DNA of 64,000 nt, from positions 434,001-498,000 of the forward strand of contig NW_027251778.1 of NCBI RefSeq assembly GCF_044704955.1. The letters run 5' to 3'. A model generated the notes under the pieces. It made no database searches and was not told where the DNA came from. It saw only the letters and a program-made list of their open reading frames with translations. The position numbers and the translations under genes are program-made. Positions 17,531 through 59,643 of this stretch are shown piece after piece (the first letter of the stretch is position 1; each line of letters starts with the position of its first letter). The stretch is from Pristiophorus japonicus. Lineage: Eukaryota.

Positions 17531-17535
17531 GGATG

Positions 17536-19345: not shown

Positions 19346-20348
19346 CAGACTCCAGGCGCAGTAATACACGGCCGACTGATCCGCCCGCAGGCCGGAGGTC
19401 TCCAGGTAGAAGTGGGTGTTGTCGGGTCTCTTGGCGGTGAATCCGACCACCTCACCGGAGGGGTCGACCATTTTGGCGTAACTGGAAATGAAAAGTTTCT
19501 GAGGCTCCCGGTCAGGATGCCACCGGTACCAGTAGAAATACGAGTTAACTTCCGCTTCTGTGTAAAGACACTCGATGCTAACCGGAGTGCCCGGGGAATT
19601 GGATATGGAAGCGGGGGTCTGTTTGATCAGCACGGCCCCCACATCTGTAAAACCGAGAAAGAGAGAAGTTCAGAGACAGAGTTGAAGCCAGGGAGAAATG
19701 GCTAATAGACACCCGCCAGAGGAGGGGAGAGAGAGTGAAGGGAAGAGGGGGCAAGAGAGGCAGAGAGACAGAGCGAGATGGAGAGAGCCAGTGAAGTGGG
19801 CCAGCGGGACAGACAGAGAGAGAGAGAGGCAAAGATAGAGAGAGAATGAGATAAAGAGAGAGAGAGATAAACCGAGCGACAAACTACACATCACTCGAGA
19901 TGAGAAGGCGCACATGAAGAGNNNNNNNNNNNNNNNNNNNNNNNNNNNNNNNNNNNNNNNNNNNNNNNNNNNNNNNNNNNNNNNNNNNNNNNNNNNNNNN
20001 NNNNNNNNNNNNNNNNNNNNNNNNNNNNNNNNNNNNNNNNNNNNNNNNNNNNNNNNNNNNNNNNNNNNNAATAGAGACAGAGAGAGACACAGACAGACAG
20101 AGACAGAAGAGAGTGGCAGTGAGGGTGGGAGACAGAGAGAAGGAGACAGACAGACAGACAGAGAACACACTATAAACCGAGGGGGAGAGAATCTAGACCA
20201 GCCCGCGGTGTGAAGGGACACACGGGGAAATTAAAGTGAGGATCGCTGAGATCTCACAGCCCAGCTCCACCTTACCCGTTAACACCAGCAACACAAGCCA
20301 GAGCTGGGACATAGGCATCTCTGGGGGGAGGGAGATCCGGGGGTTCAT
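19346..20348 (-). CDS. TRBV: TRB V segment V1, family A, intact
   Basis: Leader exon 20276-20348 (MNPRISLPPEMPMSQLWLVLLVLT, gtaagg donor). V exon 19346-19644 (DVGAVLIKQTP..C..WYRW..YYCAWSL). RSS CACAGTG-23-ACACAAACC at 19307-19345. Confidence 0.93.
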
Positions 20349-20430
20349 GGTGTGCAACCTTTGAATATCTCACAGTTCTGGGCAATGTGGCATTTACTGA
20401 CCCCCTGCTCTCCAATGTTCAATGTGCGGG

Positions 20431-20503
20431 TGGGAGGGGCCAATCTCTCTTCACCAGTTCATTGGCTCCCTCATCTGGAGTGGTCTTTACCGGGGCGGGG
20501 CTA
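20431..20503 (-). promoter_or_regulatory. Family A V promoter (CCAAT boxes and GC box)
   Basis: GGGGCCAATC, ATTGG and GGGGCGGGGC lie 80-155 bp upstream of the ATG. This region is largely conserved upstream of the other family A leaders. Confidence 0.5.
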
Positions 20504-22139
20504 ACAGGGACTGAGGTTAAAGGGCGGTCCATGGACCCTTCGTCTGAGAGGGCAGTGATGGTGAAAAGAGAAGTATACTGTGAGTCTGACTCACTCTCAG
20601 GGTTTATTCAGGGAATGAGAGGTTTTAACTCTGTATATAACCAGTAAGAGAGAGATTTATCCCCACATAACAAGTTAGGCGTGGACTTTACTCTGAATGT
20701 AATAAAAATGCAGGTCTTCCTTTGCTTTTCCTTTCTTTCTAACCTTCCCTCTTTTTTTCCTTCTTTCCATCATTCGCTTTCCTTCTTTCTTTCATCCACT
20801 CCTTCTTCCCTTCGTTCTCTCTTTCTCACTTTCTCTCTTTCTTTCAGTTACACATTCTGTCCTTTCTTTTCTTTTTTCCTATCTGTATTATTTTCGTCTT
20901 TCTTTCAGGCTCTCTTTCTTTTGTTATTCTTTCTTTCTTTTCTTCTTTTCTCCTTCTTTCTTTCTTTTTTTCTTTCTTACTTTATGTCTCTCCGTCTCTC
21001 CTGTTTCTTTCTGTCTACCCTTTTTTCTTTCTTTCAGTATTTCTTTCCTCCGTTCCTTCGTTTTCTTTTGATTTATTTCCGTCTTCCAATAAATGTTTAT
21101 TATCTTCTATCTTTCCCCTTTTCTTCCCCAGTCTCACTTTCTTTCTTTCACTCTCTGTTTATACCTTTTTTCTTTCTTCCATTTACACTTTCTATACATC
21201 TTTCTTTCTGCAATTGTCTCTTTGTATCGTTCTTTCCTTCTATACTTCTTTCTTACTTTCTTTATTTCTTTCATTTACTCATTCTCTCCATTTTTAGTGA
21301 ATTAATTCATTCTCTCTTTCTATCCTTCTCTCTATCTTGCTTTCTTTCTCTCTTTCTTATCTGCTTTCCTTCTTTCTCTCTCACCTATCACTTTTTCTCT
21401 CCTTCTTATTTTACCTTTTCATTTCTAACCTTCCCTCTTTCCTACTTCATTTCTTTCTGTCCGTTTTTTCTCCTCTGTTTCGATCTATTTACATTATTTC
21501 TGTAACTCTTTCTCTAAATCTGTTTTACTTTCATCGAATCAAACTCTCAATGTTTCTTCCATCCTTTCTCTCCCTTTCAATGTTCATCATTATTTCCCTC
21601 TCCTGCCCGTTGATGTTATTTCAGCCTTTATTTCTTGCTTACGTTAATTCTCTCCCTTTTTCTTTAATTTACACATTCTCTTTCTTTCTTTCTTTCCTTT
21701 TTTCTTTCATTCATTAGTTCCTTCTATCTTTCAGGCTCTCTTTCTTTATGTGTTCTTTCTCTCTTTGTTCTTTAATTTTTCTTTCTTTTTTTTCCTTCGA
21801 TCTTTCTTTCTTTCAGACTCTCTTTCTTTCTTTCCTTCTTTGTTTCCTTCATTCTTGACCTTTTTTATTTTACTCCCCACCCTTGCATTCCTTTTCACGT
21901 CCTTTAATTTTTCAGACCGCTCCTTCAGCTTTTATCTTTCTTTCATCCAATGAAAATTACTTTATTAGAGCTATGGTTTATTCTTTCATTCCATCTCTCC
22001 AACTCGAGAGGATCAAAAGTGATCTATGCTGCCCCCTGCTGACCATTATATTACATGCTCCTCCCCTCCACGTCCAAGTCCAACGACAGGTATTGTGTAC
22101 AGGCAGAAAGACAGATAGACAGATCGATAGCTAGATAGA

Positions 22140-22147
22140 TCGATTGC

Positions 22148-22226
<79 letters not shown>
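22140..22226 (+). repeat. (GATA)n microsatellite
   Basis: Perfect agat run. Another lies at 50551-50625. Confidence 0.95.
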
Positions 22227-22227
<1 letters not shown>

Positions 22228-22573
22228 GACTCAAAGACAGACAGATAGATAGAGAGTCAGATAGACACATACCATGGGGAAATAGACATAAAAACAGAAC
22301 ATAGAAAACGAGACAGATCTATCTCAAACAGTTGGCTCCTGTCCCCTTTGAAATAGGTAGGTAGACAGATGGACAGGCAGACAAACAGACAGATGGATAG
22401 ATGGTATTGCTGTTTAGACAACCGACACACAGATAGACATTTCGACTCAGAGATAAATGGGTAAGGAGACAGAGAAACAGATGCACAGACAACGAGAATG
22501 ATCTGTCGCCAACAAGTGTTTCCTGCCATGGTGGGGTTTGTGTCGAGCCCCTCCATCTCCGTGAGTCACTGTG

Positions 22574-23378
22574 CATACTCCAGGCGCAGTAATACACGGC
22601 TGCCTGATCCGCCCGCAGGCCGGAGGTCTTCAGGATGAACTCCATGGCATTCGTTCGCTCTGCAGTAAAACCGTGCACCGTCCCCTCTGGATTGACCTGA
22701 TTGTGGCCCGTGGAGTAAAACATAAACTGCGGCTCCTTCCACGGGTCCTGTCTGTACCAGAACATGTAACCGCTACTGGTGCCCTTCACAGCACACATCA
22801 GGTCCACTCCCTCCCCGGGAAATCTGGAGACAGCGGGCGGAGTCTGGCGGATAGTCTGTGAGCTCACGCCTGGGAAAGAGATGGGGAGAGGAGGTGGTCA
22901 GTAAACAGGGNNNNNNNNNNNNNNNNNNNNNNNNNNNNNNNNNNNNNNNNNNNNNNNNNNNNNNNNNNNNNNNNNNNNNNNNNNNNNNNNNNNNNNNNNN
23001 NNNNNNNNNNNNNNNNNNNNNNNNNNNNNNNNNNNNNNNNNNNNNNNNNNNNNNNNNNNNNNNNNNNNNNNNNNNNNNNNNNNNNNNNNNNNNNNNNNNN
23101 NNNNNNNNNNNNNNNNNNNNNNNNNNNNNNNNNNNNNNNNNNNNNNNNNNNNNNNNNNNNNNNNNNNNNNNNNNNNNNNNNNNNNNNNNNNNNNNNNNNN
23201 NNNNNNNNNNNNNNNNNNNNNNNNNNNNNNNNNNNNNNNNNNNNNNNNNNNNNNNNNNNNNNNNNNNNNNNNNNNNNNNNNNNNNNNNAAAAAGTATAGA
23301 AAGAATATTATAAAGAATGATTGTTTGAAAAAGTCCCTTACGGTGGAGTAAGACCATTAGGCCCAGTAATAGATACAT
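22574..23378 (-). CDS. TRBV: TRB V segment V2, family B, intact
   Basis: Leader 23342-23378 (MYLLLGLMVLLH, gtaagg donor). V exon 22574-22869 (VSSQTIRQTP..CAVKG..WYRQ..YYCAWSM). 23-RSS at 22535-22573. The intron contains an N gap. Confidence 0.92.
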
Positions 23379-23445
23379 CTTTGACTTGAAGTTTTCCCTC
23401 AATAATGAAAGGAGCGAGAGCAGCAGAGTAGAGTCTGTGAGGGCC

Positions 23446-23782
23446 CCGTCCCTCCGACTCTGATGGGCAGTCCGGCCGCTCTCCCTCTGATGGGCAGCCC
23501 AGCCCCTCCCCCTCTGTAGGGCAGCCCAGCCCCTCCCCCTCTGATGGACAGCCCAGCCCCTCCCCCTCTGAATGGCAGCCAGGCCCCTCTCCCTCTGATG
23601 TGCAGCCCAGCCCCTCTCCCTCTGATGTGCAGCCCGGCCCCTCCCCCTCTGATGGACAGCCCAGCCCCTCCCCCTCTGATGGGCAGCCCAGCCCCTCCCC
23701 CTCTGATGGACAGCCCAGCCCCTCCCCCTCTGATGGGCAGCCCGGCCCCTCCCCCTCTGATGGACAACCCGGCTCCTCTCTG
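23446..23782. repeat. 27-bp GC-rich minisatellite, ~12 copies, in the V2 promoter position
   Basis: Unit TGATGGGCAGCCCAGCCCCTCCCCCTC. Confidence 0.9.
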
Positions 23783-23875
23783 ACAGACACACAGACAGAG
23801 ATATCTATCTCCCACAGGTGTTTCCTGCCATGGTGGGGTTTGTGTCGAGCCCCTCCATCTCCCTGAGTCACTGTG

Positions 23876-24954
23876 CAGACTCCAGGCGCAGTAATACATG
23901 GCCGCCTGATCCGCCCGCAGGCCGGAGGTCTCCAGGTAGAAGTGGGTGTTGTCGGGTCTCCTGGCGGTGAATCCGTCCACCTCACCGGAGGGAGTGACCA
24001 TTCCAGCGTAGGTGGAATAGAAAAGGTTCTGAGGCTCCCGGTCAGGATGCCACCGGTACCAGTAGAAATAGGAGCCAGCTGTTGCTTCTGTGTAAAGGCA
24101 CTCGATGCTCACCGCAGTGCCCGGGGAATGGGATACGGAAGCGGGGGTCTGTTGGATCAGCACGGCCCCCACGTCTGTGAAACCGAGAAAGAGAGTCAGA
24201 GATAGAGATAAACCCAGGGAGAAATTGCAAAACAACACACGCCATGAAGCGGCAGAGGAGGGGAGAGAGAATGAGGGAGAGAGGGGGCGAGATAGACAGA
24301 GAGACAGAGCGAAACGGAGCGAGCGAGAGAGGGAGTGAGCGACGGAGTGAGACAGTGACACCGACAAAGAGAGCGAGGCAGAGACAGAGAGAGAATGAGA
24401 TACAGAAAGAGAGATAAACCGACCGACAATCTACACATCACTGCAGGATGAGACGGAGCACATGAGGAGAGCGAGATAAAAAAGAGAAAGGGAGAGCGAG
24501 AGAGAGAGAGAGTGAGAGAAGGACAGACAGAGAGAGAGACAGAGAGACATAGAGACGGAGAGAGAGTAAGAGAGAGAGACAAAGAGAGAATNNNNNNNNN
24601 NNNNNNNNNNNNNNNNNNNNNNNNNNNNNNNNNNNNNNNNNNNNNNNNNNNNNNNNNNNNNNNNNNNNNNNNNNNNNNNNNNNNNNNNNNNNNNNNNNNN
24701 NNNNNNNNNNNNNNNNNNNNNNNNNNNNNNNNNNNAGAGACAGAGAGGGAGACAGACAGACAGAGGACACACTATAAACCGAGGGGAGGGGGCGAAATCT
24801 AGACCAGGCCGCGGTGTGAAGGGACACACGGGGAAATTAAAGTGAGGATCGCTGAGATCTCACAGCCCAGCTCCACCTTACCCGTTAACACCAGCAACAC
24901 AAGCCAGAGCTGGGACACATGGATCTCTGGGGGGAGGGAGATCCGGGGGTTCAT
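23876..24954 (-). CDS. TRBV: TRB V segment V3, family A, intact
   Basis: Leader 24882-24954, where only the upstream ATG is in frame. V exon 23876-24174 ends YYCAWSL. 23-RSS at 23837-23875. Confidence 0.9.
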
Positions 24955-25264
24955 GGTGTGCAACCTCTGAATATCTCACAGTTCTGGGCACTGTGGCATT
25001 TACTGACCCCCTGCTCTCCAATGTTCAATGAGCGGCTGGGAGGGGCCAATCTCTCTTCACCTGTTAATTGGCTCCCACATCGGGGCTGGTCATCCCCGGG
25101 GCGGGGCTAATGGCGATTCTGGGTAATCGACGGTCCGTTTCCTCCCTTGCTGGCGGCATCTTGGTTTCTAGAAACCTGTAATAACTCGAAGGGAGTGACA
25201 AAAGGGAAGTTATAGTGTCTGCCTGACTCATTCTATATTAAACTAGTGAGTGAATAAATGGATG

Positions 25265-25840
25265 ACCCTGTATCTAACCCGTACTATATCTGTATCTAAA
25301 CTGTACTGTTCCTGTATGTAACTCGCACTGTTCCTGTATCTAACCCGTGCAATTCCTTTATCTAACGTACTGTTCCTGTAACTACCCCGTGCTAATCCTG
25401 TGTCTAACCCCGTACTGTTCCTGTATCTAACCTGTACTGTTCCTGTATCTAACCTGTACTGTTCCTGTATCTAACCTGTACTGTTCCTGTTCCTACACCT
25501 AACCGTAGTTTTCCTGCATCTAACCGTACAGTTCCTGTATCTAACCCGTGCTGATCCTGTATATAAACCGTACTGACCCTGCATTTAACCTGTGCTGTCC
25601 GTGTATCTAACCCGTGCTGTCTCTGTATCTAACCCGTACTGACCCTGTATCTAACCCGTACTGACCCTGTATCTATCCCGTGCTATTCCTGTATCTAAAC
25701 CGTTCTGACCTTATATGTAACCCATACTGTTCCTGTATCTTTCCCGTGCTGACCCTGTATCTAACCCGTGCTGACCCAGTATCTAACCCGTGTTGACCCT
25801 GTATCGAACCCGGATGTCCTTGTATCTAACCCCTGCTGAA
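25265..25840. repeat. ~22-bp minisatellite
   Basis: Unit CTGTATCTAACCCGTGCTGACC, located between the V4 RSS and the V3 promoter. Confidence 0.88.
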
Positions 25841-25962
25841 CCTGCTCATGCACATTCTGTACTGGCTCCACGCCCAACAAACCAGCACCTGGTCCGGCCC
25901 TGAGCCCCGTTCTCTGCTGCCCCGGGTTTGTGTTGCACCGCCCCGGCCCCTTTGTCACTGTG

Positions 25963-26400
25963 AAGACTCCAGCTGCAGTAATACACCCCCGAGTGCTCCG
26001 CTCGCTGGCTGGCCGTCTGCAGGTGGAAGGTGGACTGGTCGGCTCTGGAGGCGGTGAATCCGTCCACCTCTCCCGCCGGCTCGATGCTGTCGGCGTTGCC
26101 AGAGAAGAAGAGAAGCGAGAGCTCTCCGTCTGGAAGCTTGCGGTACCAGGAAAACTCTGAGCTGAAGGATCCCTCCGCAGAACAGCGGACGAGCAGCGGG
26201 GAGTGCAGGGAACTGGAGATTACAGACGGAATTTGCTGAACTTTGCCGCTTGCGACACCTGCGAATATGAGCAGAATAAGTGGGTTTATAACATACGGCC
26301 GCTGACATTGGGAGACAAACTACGCCCATGCAATTGCAGAGAGAGACTTACTGTGCAACAGCAGCGCGGAAACAAGGCACTGCGTTAAATGCATTTTCAT
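25963..26400 (-). CDS. TRBV: TRB V segment V4, family C, intact frame
   Basis: Leader 26352-26400 (MKMHLTQCLVSALLLH, gtaagt donor). V exon 25963-26258 (VASGKVQQIP..RCSAEG..WYRK..YYCSWSL) has no stops. RSS is CACAGTG-22-ACACAAACC at 25925-25962. The ORF track only partly captures it. Confidence 0.87.
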
Positions 26401-28847
26401 TGCGAGTTTGCAAAAAAGAAATAGAGCGAGGAATTTGCAAGAATCTGCACACTGGCGCCCACGCAAGTTTCTGTCTCTGCAATTCGGTGTGATTGGCAGC
26501 TCCAGAACGTATTCCTTGCAGTGTGATGACAACTGTGCAGTGCCAACCCCGCCCCTCCCAGCTTCTGCAAACTCTTACTTAAGAATATAACATAAGAACA
26601 CAAGAAATAGGAGCAGGAGTGGCCATACTGCCTCTCGAGGCTGCCTCGCCATTTAATACGATCTTTACTAATCTGATCATGGACTCAGCTCCACTTACCT
26701 GTCCACTCCGCTTAATTCCTTATTCTCTTATCGCTTAAGGAAATGTCATCACTCTGTCTTAAATATATTCAATGAACCAGCTTCCACAGCTCTCTGAGGC
26801 AGCGACTACCATAGATGTACAACCCTCTGAGAGAAGAAATTCCTCCTCATCTCAGTTTTAAATGAGCGGCCCCTTATTCTAAGATCATGCCCCCTAGTTC
26901 TAGTCTCCCCCATAAGTGGAATTATCCTCTCTGCATCCACCTTTTCAAGCCCCATCTTAATCTTATATGTTCTTCTGAATTTCAATGAGCAGAGGCCAAA
27001 CCTACTCAATCTTTCTTCATAAGTCAACCCCCTCATCCCCGCAATCAACCTAGTGAACCTTCTCTGAACTGCCTCCAAAGCAAGTGTATCCCTTCTTAAA
27101 TATGGAAACCAAAACTTCACGCAGTACTGCAGGTGTGGCCTCACCAATACACTGTATAGCTGTAGCAAGACTTCCCTGTTTGTATACTCCATCCCCTTTG
27201 CAATAAACTCCAAGATACCATTGGCCTTCCTGATCACTTGCTGTACGTGTGCACTATCCTTTGGTGTTTCATGCACAAGTGCCCCCAGGTCCGGCTGTAC
27301 TGCAGCACTTTGCAAATTTTCACCATTTTAATAATAACATGCTTTTTCAATTTTTTTCGGCCAAATTGCAAGACCTCACACTTTCCAACATTATCCGCCA
27401 GATTTTTTATGTCCTCTTCATATATTGCATTTCCTCCCACCTTCATATCATCATCAAACTTGTCTACGAATTAAAGGGTTACACTTTTGGCGGGGCTGCA
27501 CTCCGATATTCTTTGACAAACACTTCGAAAGGCACCGACAATCTGTCAGACAAGTGGGCTAACGGTTTGCAGCAGTAACTCGAGCACCTGCTCGGTGGGG
27601 CAGCTGTCCCCGTGAGAAACGGATCTGCAGCGCCATGTCGCGTCTGCCCAGCGAGCAACACCCGTCACACGGCTCAGGGTTCTCAGATGAACTGTCTCAT
27701 GTCTGTGTGGTGTTGTTCCTCTTATAGCGGTGAATGTGAAGGGCAGGGTTCAAAAAGGTGCATATATTAATTTAAGGTTTTGATAGAGTAACGAAGGAGA
27801 AACGGGATCCAGTGGCAGGAGAGTCGATAAAGAAAGGAGACAGATTTAGGTAATTTGCTCAAGAACCAGAGCCGGAGGTGAGTAAAAGCTTTCTCCTCAG
27901 TGAATCATTGTGATCTGGAACGCGCTGCCTGAAAGGGTGCTGGAAGCACACTCAATAGTAACTTTTAAACTGGAGTGGGATAAATATATGAAGGGGATAT
28001 TTTCAATGCTGTGCGGAACGGGTCAGGGGATTGGGACTAATTAGATAGCACAGACACGAAGGAGCGAATCGCCTCCTTCTGTAATGTAACCTTCTATGAT
28101 TCTATGGAAATCAGCTCTTCTCGTTGCGATTGCGATAGGCAAGTAACAGGAGTGATAAACACCTCCTCTGACAGTATGAGCCTGGAAACTATTCACTGGC
28201 ATAATCGGGAGCTAGCCGCAATCCCGACCCTCTTCCTGCATTTGTTCCTTCAATATTAGCATTCTCCCATTTAACAAATGTCATAATCGTTGCGGACACA
28301 CAGAGTATATTTTATGATTAGCACATCCGAAAGATTGATACATCATTTTTAATATTGAATAATATGTTGAAGTAATATCAAGTGAAAGGGAATAAGAAGA
28401 TGTAACAATGTAAATAAAAATAAGTTCCAAAATATATCATTTATTTAAATGGTGNNNNNNNNNNNNNNNNNNNNNNNNNNNNNNNNNNNNNNNNNNNNNN
28501 NNNNNNNNNNNNNNNNNNNNNNNNNNNNNNNNNNNNNNNNNNNNNNNNNNNNNNNNNNNNNNNNNNNNNNNNNNNNNNNNNNNNNNNNNNNNNNNNNNNN
28601 NNNNNNNNNNNNNNNNNNNNNNNNNNNNNNNNNNNNNNNNNNNNNNNNNNNNNNNNNNNAATATACGAATAGATGGATAGATCTTTATTCAGACACGCAG
28701 ACAGACAGATACTCAGATCGATAAATGGCTAAAGAGACACATAGAGACTCAGATAAACATGCAGACAGGTACAGATCTATCTCCCACAGGTGTTTCCTGC
28801 CATGGCGGGGTTTGTGTCGAGTCCCTCCATCTCCCTGAGTCACTGTG

Positions 28848-29453
28848 CAGACTCCAGGCGCAGTAATACACGGCCGATTGATCAACCCGCAGGCCGGAGG
28901 TCTCCAGGTAGAAGTGGGTGTTGTCGGGTCTCTTGGCAGTGAACCCCTCCACCTTACCGGAGGGAGTGACTGTTCCGCTGACGGTGGAATAGAAAAGGTT
29001 CTGAGGCTCCCGGTCAGGGTGCCAGCGGTACCAGTAGAAACGGGAGCTAATTGTTGCTTCTGTGTAAAGGCACTCGATGCGCACTGGAGTACCCGGAGAA
29101 TTGGATATGGAAGCGGGGGACTGTTTGATCAGCACGGCCCCCACATCTGTAAAACCAAGAAAGAGAGTTAGAGATAGCGATAAACCGAGAGAGAAATGTT
29201 ATATAAACACCCGCCATGCATGAACAGAGGAGGGGAGAGAGAGTGGGGGAGAGAGGTGGCGAGAGATGCAGAGAGATAGAACGAGACGGAGAGAGCGAGA
29301 GAGTGAGGGAGGGAGTGAGAGCGGGACGCACAGAGAGAGAGAGGCCAAGACAGAGAGAGAATGAGATGTAGAAAGAGAGATAAACCGAGCGAAAATCTAC
29401 AAACACCGGAGGATGAGAAGGAGCACATGAGTAGAGAGAGATATTAACGAGAA

Positions 29454-29487
<34 letters not shown>

Positions 29488-32454: not shown

Positions 32455-33189
32455 TCCCATCAGCAGTGGCACAGAAATACAGCGCCAGGTCGCTGGGTTC
32501 TACTGTCTCGATCTTCAGTGTGGATTTCTTATTTTCCACCGTCCTGGTGATGGTGAACCCGCTCTCAAAACCCTTTTCATATCGAGCATCGCTGCTGAGG
32601 TAAATAGACCCGATTAACGCCAATCCTCCGCCGGCGGACTGACGATACCACAGCATGTTATTGCTAACTGTCCCGTTCTGAAAACAGTTCAGCTCGGCGG
32701 ATTCTCGCTGGCGTACGCTGAGCGAGCGGGGCCACTGATACGGCACCTCGCCCCGGGAACCACCTGGAAACAGAAATTCGGGGCAACAGAATTAGCATCG
32801 TTGAAGTGAAACTCTCAGTGATACATGTTGGCGTTGGACCGATTTATCGATAGATATTTAGCCTTTCCCGAATTCGCAACAAGCAGCAGAAACAATGCAA
32901 CTGTAAAATAAAACAGAGGACTTTGCAAAGTTCAATCAATTATTAAACAATGGAAGTTATATTCATAGCATTTCAGGTTCAAAATAGAGCAGATTATTGA
33001 TTCAGTTATCTGACGTTAATTAATTGATTGTTTATCTATTAGTCCACTGTATCTCACCGACACGGGACATTATTTTGATCAGTTAAAAACCCTTTCAGTT
33101 GAGAAAGTATATCACAGTAATTGCAAGGTGAATTTTAACATACTCAGCGTCAGAAAGAACCCAGCAGTAAGGAGGAAAAGGAATCGCAT
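32455..33189 (-). CDS. TRBV: TRB V segment V6, family D, intact
   Basis: Leader 33144-33189 (MRFLFLLTAGFFLTL, gtatgt donor). V exon 32455-32763 (GSRGEVPYQWP..CFQNG..WYRQ..YFCATADG). RSS CACAGCG-23-ACAAAAACC at 32416-32454. Confidence 0.92.
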
Positions 33190-33280
33190 CTTTGCCGGAT
33201 TTCTAGGACATGTTCCGCTGCATGTTCTGGCTTTAAGAGAGCGACGCAAACTGAGCGAGTGCAAAATACAACGCCACAAG

Positions 33281-37461: not shown

Positions 37462-38499
37462 CAGACTCGAGGAGCAGTAATACATGGCCACCTGATCTGC
37501 CCGCAGGCCTGAGGTCTCCAGGTAGAAGTGGGTGTTGTTGGGTCTCCAGGCGGTGAATCCTTCCACCTCACTGGAGGGATCGAACATTTTAGCGTAGGTG
37601 GAATGGAAAAGGTTCTGAAGCTCCCGGTCAGGATGCCACCGGTACCAGGTGAAATAGGAGCCAGCTGTTGCTTCTGTGTAAAGGCAGTCGATGCCAACCG
37701 GAGTGCCTGGGGAATTGGATATGGAAGCGGGGGTCTGTTGGATCAGCACTGCCCCCACATCTGTAAAACCGAGAAAGAGAGAGAGTTAGAGAGAGAGATA
37801 AACCCAGGGAGAAATTGCATACAGACACCCACCTTGAAGGGGCACAGGAGAGGAGAGAGAGTGAGGGAGAGAAGAGGCGAGTGAGGCAGAGCGACAGAGC
37901 GAGACGGAGGGAGCGTGAGGGAGGGAGTGAGACAGCGGGACGGAAAGAGAGAGAGAGGAAAACAGAGAGAGGAGATACAGAGAGAGAGAGTTAAGCCGAG
38001 CGACAATCTATCCATCACCAGAGGATGAGAAGGAGCACATGTGGAAAGAGAGATAGAAACGAGAAAAAGTGAGAGAGAAAGAGAGAGACAGAGACAAGGG
38101 AAATATAATTAGCCAGTCAGGCAGTAAGACTCACAGAGAGAGGGGGAGAGACAGACAGAGAGAGAGTGGCAGTGAGGTAGGGAGGCACACAGACAGAGAG
38201 AGAGAGTTGGATACAGAGAGAGGGAGACAGGCAGACATACAGAAAGGGAGAGAGTTGGTGGCAGTGAGGGTGGGAGACAGAGAGAAGGAGTGAGATAGAC
38301 AGACAGAGAGAGAGGACACACTATAGCCCGAGGGGGAGAGAATCTGGACCAGCCCGCGGTGTGAAGGGATACACGGGGAAATTAAAGTGAGGATCGCTGA
38401 GATCTCACAGCCCAGCTCCACCTGACCCGTTAACACCAGCAACACAAGCCAGAGCTGGGACACAGGCATCTCTGGGGGAAGGGAGATCTGGGGGTTCAT
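37462..38499 (-). pseudogene. TRBV: TRB V segment V7, family A, open frame but defective RSS
   Basis: Leader 38427-38499 has a weaker gtcagg donor. V exon 37462-37760 is open and ends YYCSSSL. The heptamer is CATAGTG (37455-37461), which breaks the essential CAC. Confidence 0.8.
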
Positions 38500-39314: not shown

Positions 39315-39750
39315 AAGACTCCTGCTGCAGTCATACACCCTCGAGTGCTCCGCTCGTAAATGGCTGTCTGCAGGTGGAAGGTGAACTGGTCGGCTCTGGA
39401 GGCGGGGAATCCGTCCACCTCTGCTGCTGGCTCGATGCTGTCGACGTTGCGAGAGAAGAAAAGCAGCGGGAGCTCTCGGTCTGGGAACTGGCGGTACCAG
39501 GAAAACCCTGAGTTGAAGAATCCCACCGCAGAACAGCTGACGAGCAGCGGGGAGTGCAGGGAACTGGAGATTGCAGCCGGAATTTGCAGAACTTTGCCGC
39601 TTGCGACACCTGCGATTATGAGCAGAAGAAGTGGGTTTTAACACAGGGCCGCTGACATTGTGAACCAAACTGCGACCAAGCAATTGCGGAGAGAGACTTA
39701 CTGTGCAACAGCAGTGCGGAAACAAGGCACCGCGTTAAATGCATTTTCAT
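39315..39750 (-). pseudogene. TRBV: TRB V segment V8, family C pseudogene
   Basis: Paralogue of V4. Leader 39702-39750. V exon 39315-39609 is 295 nt versus 296 in V4, with a -1 frameshift in FR3 near 39360, and YYC has become YDC. RSS at 39276-39314. Confidence 0.87.
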
Positions 39751-42398: not shown

Positions 42399-43076
42399 CA
42401 GACTCCAGGCGCAGTAATACACGGCCGCCTGATCCGCACGCAGGCTGGAGGTCTCCAGGTAGAAGTGGGTGTTGTCGGGTCTCCTGGCGGTGAATCCGTC
42501 CACTTCACCGGAGGGAGTGACCGTTCCACTGACGGTGGAATAGAAAAGGTTCTGAGGCTCCCGGTCAGGGTGCCACCGGTACCAGGTGAAAGTGGAGCTA
42601 ACTGTTGCTTCTGTGTAAAGGCATTCGATGCTAACCGGGGCGTTCGGGGAATTGGATATGGATATGGGGGACTGTTTGATCAGCACGGCCCCCACATCTG
42701 TAAAAACGACAAAGAGACTAGATTTAGAGATAGAGATAAACCGAGAGAGAAATTTTATATAAACATCCGCCATGAATGAACAGAGGAGGGGAGAGAGAGT
42801 GAGGGAGAGAGGTGGCGAGAGATGCAGAGAGACAGAGCGAGATGAAGAGAGCGAGAGAGAGAGGGAGGGAGTGAGAGAGGGACGGACAGAGAGAGAGAGG
42901 CAAAGACAGAGACAGAATGAGATATCAAAAGAGAGATAAACCGAGCGACAATCAACAAACATCGGAGGATGAGAAGGAGCACATGAGTAGTGAGAGATAG
43001 AAACGAGAAAGTGAGCGAGACAGAGAGAGAAATAGAAACCCGAAGGTGAGAGAGACAGAAAGAGAGAGTCGGAGAG

Positions 43077-43109
<33 letters not shown>

Positions 43110-46109: not shown

Positions 46110-46841
46110 TCCCATCAGCAGTGGCACAGAAATACAGCGCCAGGTCGCTCGGTTCTACTGTCTCGATCTTCAGTGTGGATATCTTATTTTCCAACGTCCT
46201 GGTGATGGTGAACCCGCTCTCAAATCCCTTTTCATATCGAGCATCGCTGCTGAGGTAAATAGACCCGATTAACGCCAGTCCTCCGCCGGCGGACTGACGA
46301 TACCACAGCATGTTTTCGCGAACCGTCCCGTTCTGAAAACAGTTCAGCTCGGCGGATCCTCGCTGGCGTACGCTGAGCGAGCGGGGCCACTGATACGGCA
46401 CCTCGCCCCGGGAACCACCTGGAAACAGAAATTCGGGGCAACAGAATTAGCATCGTTAAAGTGAAACTCTCAGTGATACGTGTTGGGGTTGGGCCGATTT
46501 ATCGATAGATATTTAGCCTTTGCCCGAATTCCCAACAAGCAGCAGAAACAATGCAACTGTAAAATAAAACAGAGGACTTTGCAAAGTTCAATCAATTATT
46601 AAACAGTGGAAGTTATATTCATAGCATTTCAGGTTAAACATATAGCAGATTATTGAGTTATCTGACGTTAATTAATTGATTGCTTATCTATTAGACCACC
46701 GTATTTCACCACCACAGGACATTATTTTGATCACTGAATAACCCTTTCGGTTGAGCAATTATAGCACTGTGATTGAAAGGTGGATCTTAACATACTCAGC
46801 GTCAGAAAGAACCCAGCAGTGAGGAGGAAATGGAATCGCAT
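46110..46841 (-). CDS. TRBV: TRB V segment V10, family D, intact
   Basis: Leader 46796-46841 (MRFHFLLTAGFFLTL). V exon 46110-46418 ends YFCATADG. RSS CACAGCG-23-ACAAAAACC at 46071-46109. Confidence 0.92.
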
Positions 46842-50549: not shown

Positions 50550-50626
<77 letters not shown>

Positions 50627-50814
50627 TCAGACAGTCAGTCAGAGAGACCGACAAACAGACAGACAGATAGATAGATAAAGAGACATAGAGATAAATGGGT
50701 AAAGAGACACACAAACAGACTCAGATAAACAGACTAGAGATATCTGTCTCCCACAGGTGTTTCCTGCCATGGTGGGGTTTGTGTCGAGCCTCTCCATCTC
50801 CCTGAGTCACTGTG

Positions 50815-51457
50815 CAGACTCCAGGCGCAGTAATACACATCCGCCTGATCCGCCCGCAGGTTGGAGGTCTCCAGGTAGAAGTGGGTGTTGTCGGGACTCC
50901 TGGCGGTGAATCCGTCCACCTCACCGGAGGGAGTGACCGTTCCAGCGTAGGAATAGAAAAGGTTCTGAGGTTCCCGATCTGGATGCCACCGGTACCAGTA
51001 GAAACGGGAGGCAGAATCTGCTTCTGTGTAAAGGCACTCGATGCTAACCGGGGTGTGCGGGGAATTGGAAATGGAAGCAGGAGACTGTTGGATCAGCACA
51101 GCCCCCACATCTGTAAAACCGAGAAAGAGAGAGAGTTAGAGATAGAGATAAATCCAGTGAGATATTGCATATAAACATCTGCCATGAGAGGCAGAGGAGG
51201 GGAGATAGAGTGATGGAGAGACGGGGCTAGCGAGGCAGAGAGGCAGAGCGAGAAGGAGAGAGCGATCGAGACTGAGGGAGGGAGTGAGACAGCGAGACCG
51301 ACAGAGAGAAAGGTATAGACTGAGAGAGAGTGAGATACAGAGATAGAGAGATTAACCGAGCGACAATCTACACATCATCGGACGTTGAGAAGGCGTACAT
51401 GAGGAGTGAGCCATAGAGAGGAGAAAGTGAGAGGGACAGAGAGAGAGAGCGACAGAT

Positions 51458-51492
<35 letters not shown>

Positions 51493-51815
51493 GAGAGAGA
51501 GAGAATGGGAGAGGAGCGAAATATAAATGGACAGTAAAGAAGTAAGACATACAGAAAAAGAATGGAAGGGAGAGAGAGAGAGTGGCAGAGAGGGTTGGAG
51601 ACAGAGAAGGAGAGGGACTGGCAGACAGAGAACACACTATAAACCGAGGGGGAGAGAATCTAGACCAGCCCGCGGTGTGAAGGGACACACGGGGAAATTA
51701 AAGTGAGGATCGCTGAGATCTCACAGCCCAGCTCCACCTTACCTGTTAACACCAGCAACACAAGCCAGAGCTGGGACACAGGCATCTCTGGGGAGAGGGA
51801 GATCCGGGGGTTCAT
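50815..51815 (-). CDS. TRBV: TRB V segment V11, family A, intact
   Basis: Leader 51743-51815. V exon 50815-51110 has a CDR2 one codon shorter and ends YYCAWSL. 23-RSS at 50776-50814. Confidence 0.91.
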
Positions 51816-52821
51816 GGTGTGCAACCTCTGAATATCTCACTATTCTGGGCACTGTGGCATTTACTGACCCCCTGTTCTCCAATGTTCAATGTGCGGGTGG
51901 GAGGGGCCAATCCCTTTTCACCAGTTCATTGGCTCCCTCTGGTCTTTCCTGGGGCAGGGCTAATGCGGACTCTGGGTAATCGGCGCGCTGTCTCCTCCCT
52001 TTGATGATGGAGTCTGGGGTTCCTTAACCCACAACAACACGGAGGCTTTACTCTGAATCTAATGAGTAAATTATGTGCTTTACTCTGTATCTAATCAGTA
52101 ACAGTGAGCTCTTTCTTTCATTCTCTCTTTCTTCCCTTCTTACTTTCCATCCCATTCTTTCCTTCTTTCTCTCTTTCTTTCTTTCTCTCTTTTCTTTTTT
52201 CTATCGTTCTCTCTTTCTTTCTCTGTTTCATTCTTTCTTTCATTCTTTCTTGCTTGCTTTCATTCTCCCCTTCTAGACTTGTTTCTTCCGATTTCATTCT
52301 CTCTTTCCATCCTTCTTTATCTCTTCCTTTATTTAATTATATCGTTCCTTCCTTCCTTTTTTCACTCTAACCTTCTGTTTTTCCTTCTCTCTTTCCATTC
52401 TTCTTTTTCTCTCTTATTTCTTTCTCTCTTTTTTCTTTACATGTGTCTTTCTCTCTTTTCTTCCCAGTTTCTTTTTTTTCTTTCTTTCATTCTGTATCTC
52501 GTTGTTTGCTTATTTCTTTCTTTCTCTCCTTCGTTCTATATTTCTCAACTTCCTTCCTTCTGTCCTTCTTCTTTCCTTCCTCCTTTCTGTTCTATCTTTC
52601 ATATTTTCATTCCTTTCTTTCTGCCATTCTTTATCTAAATCCTTTTTCCTTTCATCGAATCAAACTCTCGATATTTCTTCCTTCAGTTCTTTCATTTTCA
52701 TTATTTATCTGTCTTTCGCTCTCTTGGTCAGTTGACTTTATTTCTGCCTTTCTTTGCTGTTTTCATTCATTGGCTACTTTTTTCTTTTTTTTCTCGCACT
52801 TTCATTTCCTCTTTCTCACAA

Positions 52822-55800
52822 GAGGGCAGGAAAAAGAGTGGGAGAGCGATAGTGACAGGGGATTTGATTGTAAGGGGAATAGATTGGCGTTTCTGCGGCC
52901 GCAACCGAGACTCCAGGATAGTATGTTACCTCCCTGGTGCAAGGGTCAAGGATGTCACGGAGCGGGTGCTGGACATTCTAAAAAGGGAGAGTGAACAGCC
53001 AGTTGTCGTGGTGCACATTGGTACCAACGATATAGGTAAAAAAAAGTGATGAGGTCCTGCAAGACGAATTTAAGGAGCTCGGAGCTAAATTAAAACGTAT
53101 GACATCAAAAGTAGTAATCTCGGGATTGCTACCAGTGCCACGTGCTAGTCAGAGTAGGAATCGCAGGATAGCTCAGATGAATACGTGGCTTGAGCAGTGG
53201 TGCAGCAGGGAGGGATTCAAATTCCTGGGGCATTGGAACCGGTTCTGGGGGAGGTGGGACCAGTACAAACCGGACGGTCTGCACCTGGGCAGGACCGGAA
53301 CCAATGTCCTCGGGGGAGTGTTTGCAAGTGCTGTTGGGGAGGAGTTAAACTGATATGGCAGGGGGATGGGAACCAATGCAGGGAGACAGAGGGAAACAAA
53401 AAGGAGACAAAATCAAAAGACAGAAAGGAGATGAGTAAAAGTGGAGGGCAGAGAAACCCGAGGCAAAAAACAAAAAGGGCTACTGAATATAAAGGGGCTG
53501 CAGGAGGGGTCAAAACTAAAAACCATGGTTTAAAAACTAGTATTAAAACACTCTACCTAAATGCACGCAGCATTTGAAATAAAGTAAATGAGTTGACGGC
53601 ACAAATCATTACAAATGGGTATGATTTGGTGGCCATTACAGAAACGTGGTTGCAGGGTGGCCAAGACTGGGAATTAAACATACAGGGGTATCTGACGATT
53701 CGGAAAGACAGACAAAAAGGGAAAAGAGGTGGGGTAGCTCTGTTAATAAAGGATGATATCAGGGCAGTTGTGAGAGACGATATTGGCTCTAATGAACAAA
53801 ATGTTGAATCATTGTGGGTGGAGATTAGAGATAGTAAGCGGAAAAAGAAACTGGTGGGTGTAGTTTATCGGCCCCCAAATGATAACTTCACGGTGGGGAG
53901 GGCAACAATCAAGGGAATAATGGAGGCATGTGAAAAAGGAACGGCAGTAATCATGGGGGACTTTAACCTACATATCGATTGCTCAAATCAAATTGCACGG
54001 GGTAGCCTTGAGGAGGAATTCATAGAATGCATACAGGATTGTTTCTCAGAACAGTATGTTACAGAACCTACAAGGGAGCAAGCTATCGTCGATCTGGTCC
54101 TCTGTAATGAGACAGGAAAAATAAACAATCTCCTAGTAAAAGATCCTCTCGGAATGAGTGATCACATGTATGGTTGAATTTGTAATACAGATTGAGGGTG
54201 AGGAATTAGTGTCTCAAACGAGCTTACTATGCTTAAACAAAGGGGACTAGAGTGGGATGAGGACAGAGTTGGCTAAATTAGACTGGAAACACAGACTAAA
54301 CGGTGGCACAATTGAGGAACAGTGGAGGACTTTTAAGGAGCTCTTGCATCGTGCTCAACAAAAATATATTTCAGTGAAAAAGAAGGGCGGTAAGAGAAGG
54401 GATAACCAGCCGTGGATAACCAAGGAAATAAAGGAGAGTATCAAATTACAAACCAATGCGTATAAGGTGGCCAAGGTTCGTCGGAAAATAGAAGATTGGG
54501 AAAATTTTATACGACAGCAAAGAATGAATAAGAAAGCAATAAAGAAAGGAAAGATAGATTACGAAGGTAAACTTGCGCAAAACATAAAAACGGATAGTAA
54601 AAGCTTTTACAGATATATAAAACGGAAAAAGACTGAATAAAGTAAATGTTGGTCCCTAAGAAGATGAGAAGGGGGATTTTATAATGGGAAATATGGAAAT
54701 GGCTGAGACCTTAAACAATTATTTTGATTCGGTCTTCACAGTGGAAGACACAAAAACCATGCCAAAAATTGTTGGTCACAGGAATGTGGGAAGGGAGGAC
54801 CTTGAGACAATCACTATCACTAGGGGGTAGTGCTGGACAGGCAAGTGGGACTCAAGGTAAACAAGTCCCCTGGTCCTGATGAAATGCATCCCAGGGTATT
54901 AAAAGAGATGGCGGAAGTTATAGCAGATGCATTCGTTATAATCTACCAAAATTCTCTGGACTCTGGGGAGGTACCAGCTGATTGGAAAGCAGCTAATGTA
55001 ACGCCTCTGTTTAAAAAAGAGAGCAGACAAAAGGCAGGTAACTATAGGCCGGTTAGTTTAACATCTGTAGTGGGGAAAATGCTTGAAGCTATCATTAAGG
55101 AAGAAATAGCGGGACATCTAGATAGGAATAGTGCAATCAAGCAGACGCAGCATGGATTCATGAAGGGGAAATCATGTTTAACTAATTTACTGGAATTCTT
55201 TGAGGATATAACGAGCATGGTGGATAGAGGTGTACCGATGGATGTGGTGTATTTAGATTTTCAAAAGGCATTCGATAAGATACCACACAAAAGGTTACTG
55301 CAGAAGATAAGGGTAGGCGGAGTCAGAGGAAATGTATTAGCATGGATAGAGAATTGGCTGGCGAACAGAAAGCAGAGAGTCGGCATAAATGGGTCCTTTT
55401 CGGGTTGGAAATCGGTGGTTAGTGGTGTATCACAGGGATCGGTGCTGGAACCACAACTGTTTACAATATACATAGATGACCTGGAAGAGGGGACCGAGTG
55501 TAGTGCAACAAAATTTGCAGATGACACAAAGAGTACTGGGAAAGCGGGTTGTGTAGAGGACACAGAAAGGCTGCAAAGAGATTTAGAGAAGTTAAGCGAA
55601 TGGGCTAAGGTTTGGCAGATGGAATACAATGTCGGAAAGTGTGAGGTCATCCACCTTGGGAGAAAAAACAGTAAAAGGGAATATTATTTGAATGGGGAGA
55701 AATTACAACATGCTGCGGTGCAGAGGGACCTGGGGGTCCTTGTGCATTAATCCCAAAAATTAGTTTGCAGGTGCAACAGGTAATCTGGAAGGCGAATGGA

Positions 55801-56450
55801 ATGTTGGCCTTCATTGCGAGAGGGATGGAGTACAAAAGCAGGGAGGACCTTCTGCAACTGTACAGGGTATTGGTGAGGTCGCACCTGGAGTACTGCGTGC
55901 AGTTCTGGTCGCCTTACTTAAGGAAGGATATACTAGCTTTGGAGGGGGTACAGAGACGATTCACTAGGCTGATTCCGGAGATGAGGGGGTTACCTTATGA
56001 TGATAGATTGAGTAGACTGGGTCTTTACTCCTTGGAGTTCAGAAGGACGAGGGGGGATCTTATAGAAGCATTTAAAATAATGAAAGGGGTAGATAGATAG
56101 AGGCAGAGAGGTTGTTTCCACTGGTCGGGGAGACTAGAACTAGGGGGCACAACCTCAAAATACGGGGGAGTCAATTTAAAACCGAGTTGAGAAGGAATTT
56201 CTTCTCCCAGAGGTTTGTGAATCTGTGGAATCCTCTGCCCAAGGAAACAGTTGAGTCTAGCTCATTGAATGTATTCAAGTCACAGATAGATAGATTTTTA
56301 ACCAATAAGGGCATTAAGGGTTATGGGGAGCGGGCGGGCAAGTGGAGCTGAGTCCACGGCCAGATCAGCCATAGTCTTGTTGAATGGTGGAGCAGGCTTG
56401 ACGGGCTAGATGGCCTACTCCTGTTCCTAATTCTTGTGTTCTTATGTTGT
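52822..56450 (+). mobile_element. Long decayed CR1-type LINE (ORF1 SGNH esterase, ORF2 APE-RT)
   Basis: ORF1 motifs GD-IVR, PGA, HIGTND, DGLHL. APE motifs YLNARSI, ITETWL, YRPP, MGDFN, SDH. RT motifs YLDFQKAFD, QGSVL, FADDTK. It has multiple stops and frameshifts and a 3' tail. Confidence 0.93.
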
Positions 56451-56602
56451 TATGTGCTCTTTCCTACATTATTTCCACCTTTCTTGCTCCTTTTTAATCT
56501 AAACTTCCACATTGCAGACAACTATTCATATCTATCTCCCACAGGTGTTTCCTGCCATGGTGGGGTTTGTGTCGAGCCCCTCCTTCTCCCTGCGACACTG
56601 TG

Positions 56603-57102
56603 AAGACTCCAGGCGCAGTAATGCACGGTCGCCTGATCCGCCCGCAGGCCGGATAAACTACAGGTTAAAATCGTTGCCTTTCGGTCTCTCGCCAGTAAAA
56701 TGGTCCACCGGCCCCTCTGGATTCACACTTTATACAGTTGTGGAGATGAACATTGACAGCGGCTCCTTCCCGTGGTCCTGTCTGTACCAATACATGTAAG
56801 GGGTGCTTGCTCCCTCCACAGTGCATTTCAATTGCACTCGCTCCCCGGGATATCTGGAGACAGCGGCCGGAGTCTGGCGGATAGTCTGTGAGCTCACATC
56901 TTGGAAAGAGACAGGGAGAGGAGGCGGTCAGTAAACAGGGACATTCTGGGGAATGGGAAAGAGAGAGAGAAAGAAAGAAAGAAAGAAAGAAGGAAAGGAA
57001 GTAAGAAAGAAAGAAACAAGGTAAAAGGTTACTAAGAAGACTCATATTTTGAAAAAGTGCCTTACGCTGAAACAAGATCATTAGTCCCAGTAACTGATAC
57101 AT
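56603..57102 (-). pseudogene. TRBV: TRB V segment V12, family B pseudogene
   Basis: Leader 57066-57102 is intact. V exon 56603-56899 has TAA in CDR2 (ACT GTA TAA), TAG in FR3 (AAC CTG TAG) and a +1 frameshift. RSS at 56564-56602 is intact. Confidence 0.9.
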
Positions 57103-58114
57103 CTTTAACGTGATGTTTTCCCTCAATAATGAAAGGAGCAAGAGCAGGAGCGAAGAGTCTGTGAGAAGCCAAATTCGCTCTTTTCAAATCATTGAGGAAA
57201 ATATGAAGAATCTGAGGAAGTGATGCAGCTTTGCATTGTCCGTCCCCTCCCTCTGATTGGCAGACAATGCACCTCCCTCGCTGATGGCAGACAAAGCCCC
57301 TCCCTCTCTGATTGATAGAAAAAGCCCCTCCCTCTCTGATTGACAGAAAACGCCCCTCCCTCTCTGATTGACAGAAAAAGCCCCTCCCCCTGGTTAACAG
57401 ACAAAGCCCCTCCCTCCCTGATTGTCAGCACCACACCTCCCTTTCTGATTGGCCATGATTGGAGCACATGGGAAGTAGGAGCGAAATGTGGAGGAACAAA
57501 TCTATTTCGAAGACCATGTCCACAAATCATTACCAATGAATAGATACTAACGGGTGAAAGGGGCTGGACTACAGAGAGAAAGGTTTGATTCTTCAGTTGC
57601 ACAGACCCTCAGTCTGAATTATTCTGGAGAACTGTCTTCAGTTCTGGGCACCGCACTGTTAGACTTACATTGGTTCAACACAGATTCAACAGAATGACAG
57701 CAGGGCCGGGGGGGGGGGTTAAATGAAGAGCACAGGTTGCACCAACGTGGATTGTATTTACATTGACTACAGGAGATTCGGTGGTGTGCTCTTTGAGGTT
57801 CGTAAAGCATTAAAAGTGGTTGATATGTTAGATAGAGAGAATCAATTTCCTCCAGTCAGGAACTCCAGAAGGATGGGTAAGAGATTAAAGTTAGATCCAG
57901 CCAGTTCAGGCATTGCATCAGAAACCACTTCTTCACACAAAGAGTAGTGGGAATGTGAAACTCTCTCCTCCAATTGCTGTTGAGGCTGGGGGTAAATTGC
58001 AGGCTTCAAAACAGAGATTGGTTCAGTTTTGGGTGAGTATTGGTGTCCCATGATATGGGTCAAAGGACATAAATAATGATCGAACATGATATAACTGATT
58101 GGGGCAGCAGATTA

Positions 58115-58590
58115 GAGGGGCTGAATGCCCTCCTGCTGTTCCTTTGTCATCGGCTCGAGCGGCTGAATGGCCTCCTGTTCCTGTGTAACAGGGTGCAGGG
58201 GCTGATTGGGCCACCTCCTATTCTTGTGTAACCGGCGCAAGTGTCTGGTAGGCCTCCCATTCCTGTCTAAAAAGTTCGAGCGGCTGAATGGGCTTCTTGT
58301 TCCATTGTAACAGGCTCGACGGGCGGAATGGCTTTCCTGATCCTCGGTAAATGTCTCCAGGAGTGAGTGGCCGCCAGTTCCTGTGTAACACGCTCGAGGG
58401 GCTGAATGTGCCCCATCCTTCTCCTGTGCAACAGGCTCGAGGGGCTGAATAGCAATCGTTCGGCTCCTGTGTAAATAGCTCGAGGAGCTGAGAGGCCGCA
58501 TGTTTCTGTGTAACAGGCCCGAGGGGCTGAATGTGCCTCCTGTTCCTGTATAATATGCTCGAGGGGCTGAATACCCTCCACTGTTCCTGT
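58115..58590 (+). repeat. Degenerate 41-44-bp minisatellite
   Basis: Same unit as 17536-18075. Confidence 0.85.
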
Positions 58591-58594
58591 GTAG

Positions 58595-59140
58595 TTTTGG
58601 TCACCTTACTTAAGGAAGGATATACTAGCTTTGGAGGGGGTACAGACACGATTCACTAGGCTGATTCCGGAGATGACGGGTTTACCTTATGATGATAGAT
58701 TGAGTAGACTGGGTCTTCACTCGTTGTAGTTCAAAAGGATGAGCGGTGATTTGTAGAAACATTTAAAATAATGAAAGGGATAGACAAGATAGAAGCAGAG
58801 AGGTTGTTTCCACTGGTCGGGGAGACTAGAACTAGGGGGCACTGCCTCGAATTATGGGGGAGCCAATTTAAAACCGAGTTGAGAAGGAATTTGTTCTACC
58901 AGAGTGTTGTGAATCTGTGGAATTCTCTGCCCAAGGAAGCAGTTGAGGCTAACTCATTGAATGTATTCAAATCACAGAAAGATAGATTTTTAACCAATAA
59001 GGTAATTAAGGGTTACAGGGAGAGGGCGGGTAAGTGGAGCTGAGTCCACGGCCAGATCAGCCATTATCTTTTTGAATGGCGGAGCAGGCTCGAGGGGCAC
59101 GATGGCCTACTCCTGTTCCTAATTCTTATGTTCTTTTGTT
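58595..59140 (+). mobile_element. CR1-type LINE 3' end
   Basis: Closely matches 55910-56450. Confidence 0.85.
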
Positions 59141-59231
59141 ATGTTTTAAAATAGACAGGGTTCACCATCCACAGGTGTTTCCTGCATTGTGGGGTTTGTG
59201 TCGAGCCCCTCCATCTCCCTGAGTCACTGTG

Positions 59232-59643
59232 CAGACTCCAGGCGCAGTAATACACGGCCGCCTGATCCGCCCGCAGGCCGGAGGACTTCAGGTTAAACTC
59301 CTTGCCATTCGGTCGCTCGGCAGAAAAACCATCCACCGGCAACTCTGGATCCACAATATTGGTGATCGCAGAGATAAACATGGACTGCGGCCCCTTCCCC
59401 AGGTCCTGTCTGTACCAGTACATGTAAGGGTTGCTTGCTCCCTCTACAGTGCATTTCAATTCCACTCCTTCCCCGGGAAATCTGGAGACAGCAGCCGGAA
59501 TCTGGTGAATAGTCTGTGAGCTCACATCTGAGATGGGGAGAGGAGCTGGTCAGTAAAAAGGAACATTCTGGGGAAAGAGAGAAACTCAGAAAGAAAGATA
59601 GAAAAGAAAGAGAGGAAGATGGAAGGAAAGAAAAAAAGAAGCA

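Follow-up and report, generated by a model that had tools for sequence, protein, structure and literature searches.

A probable second TCR-beta unit, convergent with the canonical one and carrying mostly TRBV30-related V segments, in the sawshark Pristiophorus japonicus

Which T-cell receptor (TCR) locus carries a whole array of variable (V) segments resembling TRBV30, a gene that in mammals stands alone and inverted 3' of the constant (C) gene? The question is raised by a stretch of 64,000 nucleotides from the sawshark Pristiophorus japonicus (positions 434001-498000 of contig NW_027251778.1, here C1166; this whole stretch is the window), in which a first-pass annotation had seen a TRBV30-like V array in direct orientation. 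Our analysis indicates that the window is probably the inner end, proximal to the diversity (D) segment, of a second TCR-beta unit that lies tail-to-tail with the canonical one, and that its V array belongs mostly to a TRBV30-related lineage.

We searched the window for V, D and joining (J) segments by a six-frame scan and a scan for recombination signal sequences (RSSs). Thirteen V exons were found between positions 19346 and 59527, each with a 3' RSS, and all of them lie on the same (minus) strand as one D, one J and C exon 1. The signals have the 12/23 arrangement of a TRB unit: the V segments carry 23-RSSs, the D a 12-RSS on its 5' side and a 23-RSS on its 3' side, and the J, with its FGXG motif, a 12-RSS. 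The D keeps the GGGACA core, with the G-run replaced; the D of the canonical unit has the core and the G-run, and tetrapods have the full GGGACAGGGGGC. As the first-pass annotation had counted, 11 of the 13 V end in CAWS (V1, V2, V3, V5, V9, V11, V12 and V13), CSWS (V4) or a derivative (CSSS in V7, CSRS in V8); the other two, V6 and V10, end in CATADG.

We searched the whole genome (5.9 Gb) with the window's C and with V13, and annotated stretches of C1166 (524 kb) and of C11 (540 kb), a contig that carries a paralogous locus. On C1166, two V-D-J-C units converge tail-to-tail, the window being the inner, D-proximal end of one of them, unit B. The canonical unit A lies on the plus strand (V at 133-375 kb, D at 387861, 11 J by motif, C at 402100), about 36 kb past the window, and unit B on the minus strand (V at 453-593 kb, one D, one J, C at 437905). 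The same convergent double layout was observed on C11 (26.0-26.46 Mb), where unit B has one good and two degenerate J; this double locus (25.99-26.47 Mb) brings the genome's TRBC to four, and the C exons of C11 and C1166 are 84-87% identical at the DNA level. A genome search with the C of unit A, C(A), returned both C(A), one C of unit B, C(B), and nothing else at E<=1e-12. The orientation of the array is therefore direct only toward its own D-J-C: since the canonical D-J-C lies on the opposite strand past the window, the array is 3' of and inverted to C(A), like TRBV30. It shares with mammalian TRBV30 this position relative to the canonical TRBC, but not the state of a single gene without its own D-J-C.

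The V searches gave 198 matches, 169 with a recognisable RSS and 119 with an intact V exon. Among the intact exons, the TRBV30 clade defined below accounts for 32 of 36 on the minus strand of C1166, a larger expansion than the first-pass annotation could see, and for 27 of 56 on its plus strand, where all are distal; the proximal 70 kb of unit A holds CAAS- and CADS-type families only. On C11, the clade makes up 11 of 14 on the plus and four of 13 on the minus strand.

The C genes of the two units are 37-38% identical, as against 79% between the B paralogues and 71% between the A paralogues. The reading frame of C(B) is open in all four exons, which encode a C1-set domain, a hinge cysteine, a single transmembrane (TM) lysine and a short tail. 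Its orthologues in catsharks are three proteins (P0003-P0005) with a C identity of 67-70%; each has the same J, NAEQYFG, which one gene model joins, together with C(B), to a CAWS V. The named ESM Atlas cluster nearest to C(B) by features was TRBC (the catshark orthologue, 0.95), and a PDB search with C(B) was uninformative, dominated by multi-domain immunoglobulin (Ig) chains. A combined A and B profile passed 17 of 7994 scored candidates, 14 of A type and three of B type (all catshark), in a search so insensitive that absence of C(B) elsewhere is not implied. Named shark TRB proteins, among them the 'T-cell receptor homolog' of the horn shark (P0165), are of A type; the horn shark has several near-identical A-type C copies, and early work on this species is said to have reported several C-beta genes. 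In a tree of 20 C rows, the A group (93/97) and the B group (81/93) were separate, and C(A) was united with bony-vertebrate TRBC (78/85, not starred); a shark clade of C(A) and C(B) was kept by the approximately unbiased (AU) test (p=0.207). Salamander TRBC is 41-44% identical to C(A), which is as close as, or closer than, C(B) is (37-38%).

Unit B is apparently transcribed. In run X5, which stems from another study than the DNA runs, bases 285-624 of a 1116-nt contig align at window positions 3903-4242 only, with 0 mismatches, and the contig extends beyond C exon 1 by 284 nt at the 5' end and by 492 nt at the 3' end. It is consistent with a spliced C(B) transcript, whose 5' part would be a rearranged V-D-J. 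We rejected the idea that the 284 nt are germline D-J spacer, on the weak ground that no such piece was among the matches listed, though shorter ones were. For runs X6 and X7, no piece on the C exon was among the matches listed, which is no evidence of silence. Separately, a 230-nt X5 contig spans the unrearranged D and both its RSSs (window 12537-12764), possibly as a germline D transcript or DNA carry-over.

We next consider the V lineage. The best single-domain PDB matches of V13 were of the MEL5 beta chain family (76 bits), and MEL5 is TRBV30 (PMC5887915). A word-index homologue search with V13, of low sensitivity, gave no match; HMMER, run against 1.84 billion representatives, found 958 matches at E<=0.001. 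Among the best 150 of these 958, 30 were looked up for names. CAW-ending or related V were found there in cartilaginous fish (rays, bamboo shark, catshark), in bony fish (bichir, with the UniRef name TRBV30, sturgeon and a mormyrid) and in tetrapods (newt, giant salamander, caecilian, frogs, turtle and a donkey TRBV30 cluster).

V trees were built from 115 rows, 32 from the sawshark genome and 83 chosen from 322 library domains; the alignment ended at Cys104, so the CAWS motif was excluded. Unnamed rows were labelled TRAV, TRGV, IgL or IgH by their motifs and are presumably of these classes. In the maximum-likelihood tree (LG+G4), which spans framework regions (FR) 1 to 3, the three V families of the CAWS lineage (A, B and C) grouped with mammalian TRBV30, as the first-pass annotation had expected: these families, the CACS family of C11, three mammalian TRBV30-type rows and bony-vertebrate relatives make up a clade of 47 rows (99/93) from which all other mammalian TRBV are absent. 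A mixture-model tree of 51 rows gave the clade at 96/93, with one long-branch TRAV inside and the bootstrap unsettled. Repeating the analysis without the FR3 tail, a control that the first-pass annotation had proposed (last 22 columns dropped, 69 columns left, 15 rows left out) resolved three groups, shark CAWS (99/91), bony TRBV30-like (97/82) and other TRBV (100/97). The unrooted split persisted (100/97), but the joint clade appeared in just 19 of 300 bootstrap trees, though it was not rejected (AU p=0.142). The likeness to TRBV30 spans FR1, complementarity-determining regions (CDR) 1 and 2 and the end motif. The CAWS V lineage of unit B likely shares ancestry with mammalian TRBV30, and the TRBV30 lineage likely reaches cartilaginous fish.

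On C1166, families A (27 genes) and B (31) have a nucleotide identity of 0.52-0.58 at positions -120 to -61, as against 0.81-0.95 over the final 60 nt, third positions included, and 0.94 in the RSS spacer. This pattern points to exchange of the FR3 tail and RSS as one module, by gene conversion, between the two families. The family C spacer differs by eye from that of A and B, and its 22-bp length shifts the positional count. Seven distal V of one arm are mirrored in collinear order in the other at 96-98.7% identity (C1166:133-152 kb and 562-581 kb), and most other pairs are 85-97% identical; the mirror pairs suggest recent inverted exchange across about 430 kb.

The features of unit B are collected in Table 1. 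The strict RSS scan found 12 of the 13 V, V7 being the thirteenth, and the spacers are of 23 bp in all but V4. Seven of the 11 V of the CAWS lineage look functional, and four (V7, V8, V12 and V13) are defective. Leaders were examined for the window's V and for some of family A. Of the 27 family-A leaders on C1166, the pattern located 16 and missed 11; 15 of these 16 are intact, and the broken one is that of V13, which has ATA instead of ATG, contains a TAG in frame and ends in a GA donor. The V13 sequence that the first-pass annotation had offered as its example reads as quoted, yet it belongs to a pseudogene. Elsewhere in the window, a 43-bp tandem repeat runs in 26 copies over 60609-61700, and its motif occurs again near 17450-18050 and 58100-58550.

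Table 1. Unit B segments and exons in and next to the window (window positions unless C1166 is named)
Feature	Position	Strand	Remarks
TRBC(B) exon 4 (tail)	C1166:421277-421309	-	beyond window
TRBC(B) exon 3 (TM)	C1166:425496-425605	-	beyond window
TRBC(B) exon 2, hinge with Cys	1878..1895	-	
TRBC(B) exon 1, C1-set domain	3904..4242	-	
J	12337..12383	-	sole unit-B J on C1166; FGNG motif, GT donor, 12-RSS, heptamer at 12384
D	12653..12666	-	sole unit-B D; 14 nt, GGGACA core, three frames open, 12-RSS 5' and 23-RSS 3'
V1, family B (CAWS)	19346..19644	-	intact; leader near 20318
V2, family A (CAWS)	22574..22869	-	intact; leader near 23378
V3, family B (CAWS)	23876..24174	-	V exon intact
V4, family C (CSWS)	25963..26258	-	intact; 22-bp spacer
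V5, family B (CAWS)	28848..29146	-	V exon intact
V6, CATADG family	32455..32763	-	outside TRBV30 clade
V7, family B (CSSS)	37462..37760	-	frame open; heptamer CATAGTG; likely poorly recombining
V8, family C (CSRS)	39315..39609	-	frameshifted pseudogene
V9, family B (CAWS)	42399..42697	-	intact
V10, CATADG family	46110..46418	-	outside TRBV30 clade
V11, family B (CAWS)	50815..51110	-	intact
V12, family A (CAWS)	56603..56899	-	pseudogene: stop and frameshift
V13, family A (CAWS)	59232..59527	-	V exon open, closest to TRBV30; pseudogene, leader broken near 59790

Further observations concern the surroundings of the two loci. The proximal part of arm A (C1166:306-375 kb) is a young tandem array of near-identical copies in which CAAS and CADS V alternate, the CADS V carrying a 23-RSS plus a weak 12-spaced nonamer. 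On C11, many family-A V are pseudogenes, the V at 26054518 and 26405697 are inverted locally within their arms, and a divergent V family ending in CVA(T/L)QD (C11:26001980 and three more) occurs in both arms and falls outside the main TRBV group in trees. Another contig, C9, holds dozens of CAWS-family half-V fragments (5' and 3' halves, both strands) over 27 Mb (201-228 Mb), probably orphons carried by a repeat. The outer flanks of C1166 (4-124 kb and 608-728 kb) are nearly without unique sequence; one locus typed there is a 26/52-bp CT-rich satellite, and the open reading frames (ORFs) of the flanks are, as judged by eye, mostly transposon pieces. The 3'-inverted TRBV typically have EPHB6/TRPV6 as 3' neighbours and MOXD2/trypsinogens as 5' neighbours. 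Among the matches listed for Ephrin_lbd, Cu2_monoox_C, Trypsin and TRP (best candidates scored), none lay on C1166 or near C11:26 Mb; no synteny marker, DSBA included, was placed near either locus, which is no evidence either way on amniote synteny.

Several points weigh against reading the window as part of a second TCR-beta unit with TRBV30-related V. C1166 is a separate 1.25-Mb contig, its typed outer flank is satellite and most of its flank loci lack a unique ORF. C(B) joins TRB weakly (73/76 versus Ig C, in a tree poor in bony rows and lacking TRGC and TRDC). None of the runs is registered as RNA, the type of X5 being unrecorded, and no V-D-J junction, protein or product of inversional joining between a V of arm B and the DJ of unit A was observed. 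The V trees rest on 69-91 columns only, and the bony-vertebrate TRBV30-like rows were picked for their likeness to V13, a bias in favour of the TRBV30 grouping. The shark CAWS genes form their own subclade and are thus co-orthologues of TRBV30 at best. Moreover, without the FR3 tail the rooted TRBV30 clade is lost, the root falling between shark CAWS and bony TRBV30-like rows; the kinship proposed by the first-pass annotation thus keeps its full-length clades and the MEL5 matches, but not the rooted clade. Such a root is what one would see if the likeness were retained ancestral sequence or convergence and the shark CAWS V a basal TRBV grade: the outgroup then joins the tree where shark CAWS parts from the rest (91/80), the joint clade is rare among the bootstrap trees, and the top PDB matches of family B hold no TCR-beta except a two-domain single-chain TCR (multi-domain Ig chains dominate there, and the result is uninformative). 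We nevertheless think a basal grade unlikely, given the support for the clade over the full FR1-Cys104 alignment with the CAWS motif excluded, its retention by the AU test even without the tail, and shared features that extend over FR1, CDR1, CDR2 and the end motif. Far less credible still is an assembly artefact, with haplotypes falsely duplicated. Distal V pairs of up to 98.7% identity, the highly repetitive flanks and the small, separate contig would fit it; however, identity is 37% between the two C and 85-97% in most V pairs, C11 repeats the layout with C exons just 84-87% identical, and catsharks have C(B). We rejected it as largely refuted by the C divergence, the C11 layout and the catshark C(B).

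If the window does belong to a second TCR-beta unit, its origin can be read in two ways. Unit B may be an inverted duplicate restricted to elasmobranchs, its C having evolved rapidly, with TRBV30-like V an old family found in many orientations and the amniote 3' inversion an independent, single-gene event; we lean slightly towards this account. TRBV30-clade V also fill distal arm A in direct orientation, and a gene model (P0162) joins a CACS V of the clade to C(A). The inverted TRB pairs that arose in pike and salmonids have the reverse geometry, with V at the centre, V translocation with inversion has been modelled (PMC11754216), and the AU test keeps the shark clade of C(A) and C(B). Against a duplication confined to elasmobranchs, salamander TRBC is as near to C(A) as C(B) is, or nearer, the best C tree unites C(A) with bony-vertebrate TRBC, and unit B is common to this shark and catsharks. 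The other account, which we regard as speculative and rather improbable, is that a jawed-vertebrate ancestor had two convergent TCR-beta units, both kept in sharks; amniotes would have lost the second D-J-C and kept one V, the inverted TRBV30, and squamate TCR-epsilon would be a translocated second unit, not a squamate invention.

The order of the RSSs in unit B permits D-to-J joining first and V-to-DJ joining thereafter, both by deletion. The product would be a second beta isotype in which J diversity is almost absent, and its chain, judging from the single TM lysine of C(B), may pair with TCR-alpha. Rearrangement by deletion rather than inversion, as the first-pass annotation had it, applies to the local D-J-C but not to the canonical one: the D of unit A, with its 12-RSS, lies about 65 kb off on the other strand, so that under the 12/23 rule a V of arm B could join it by inversion. 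Inversion is how TRBV30 rearranges (PMC11264764). Families A and B would owe their similar FR3 tails and RSSs, and the two arms their mirrored distal V, to exchange that is still going on.

Among the closest known systems is mammalian TRBV30 (mouse TRBV31), with the other amniote 3'-inverted TRBV (PMC11264764, PMC11754216). It falls in the same clade in full-length trees, ends in CAWS and is 3'-inverted to the canonical D-J-C; unlike it, arm B has 32 intact V exons in three families and its own direct D-J-C, and there are more copies in the canonical arm. In PMC11754216, the amniote 3'-inverted V form one low-support clade that includes axolotl genes, and the model is V translocation behind C; its tree has nurse shark rows, and in the part of that source available shark V are not placed in the inverted clade. 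The picture of a mammalian singleton expanded in this shark is correct, but not unique to it: five inverted V occur in tuatara, and inverted clusters in salamanders (in newt and axolotl together with one divergent C).

Squamate TCR-epsilon (TRE; PMC11754216; bioRxiv 10.1101/2023.09.04.556186) resembles unit B in several respects: its V are the sister group of the inverted TRBV, D and J are single, and its one C is divergent, beta-like and, in the skink, equipped with just one TM lysine. It differs in lying on another chromosome, where RTN4RL2/SLC43A synteny characterises it, in its 2-22 V, in the five cysteines of its C and in that the available part of the bioRxiv source reports no hinge exon; the same source dates TRE to about the amphibian-reptile split. 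Paired TRB of pike and salmonids (PMC10464911) likewise comprise opposite V-D-J-C units on two chromosomes with near-identical segments across arms, but in salmonids the units lie head-to-head and the V occupy the centre, while in the shark the centre is taken by the C genes, which are 37% identical. Two or more TRBC per species are known, as here, from zebrafish, catfish, damselfish and salamanders (PMC5278385, PMC12698447); the isotypes described there at genome level are tandem, co-oriented and share V arrays, in contrast to the convergent unit B with its own array. Unit A is the canonical shark TCR-beta gene, represented by horn shark P0165 (57% C identity), and the nurse shark betaV2 primer motifs YVEQSP and AVYYCAC (PMC5931798) match the CACS family, inside the TRBV30 clade; the C, single J and D of unit B are a set distinct from it.

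We found no description of a convergent second shark TRB unit in the open literature; subscription papers on shark TCR (Criscitiello 2010, Hawke 1996) lay outside that scope, so an earlier description of C(B) is possible, and bamboo shark trb elements annotated in PMC10322711 may bear on novelty. Unit B is apparently a second TCR-beta isotype of sharks, common to this shark and catsharks and so far overlooked; primers on the canonical C would likely miss it. The origin of the inverted TRBV30 is stated not to have been elucidated (PMC11264764), and descent from a second ancestral unit, if true, would supply one both for the one inverted V that mammals carry behind TRBC and for squamate TCR-epsilon. 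For the sharks themselves, unit B, whose J is single and whose V are of TRBV30 type, may mark a distinct subset of alpha-beta T cells.

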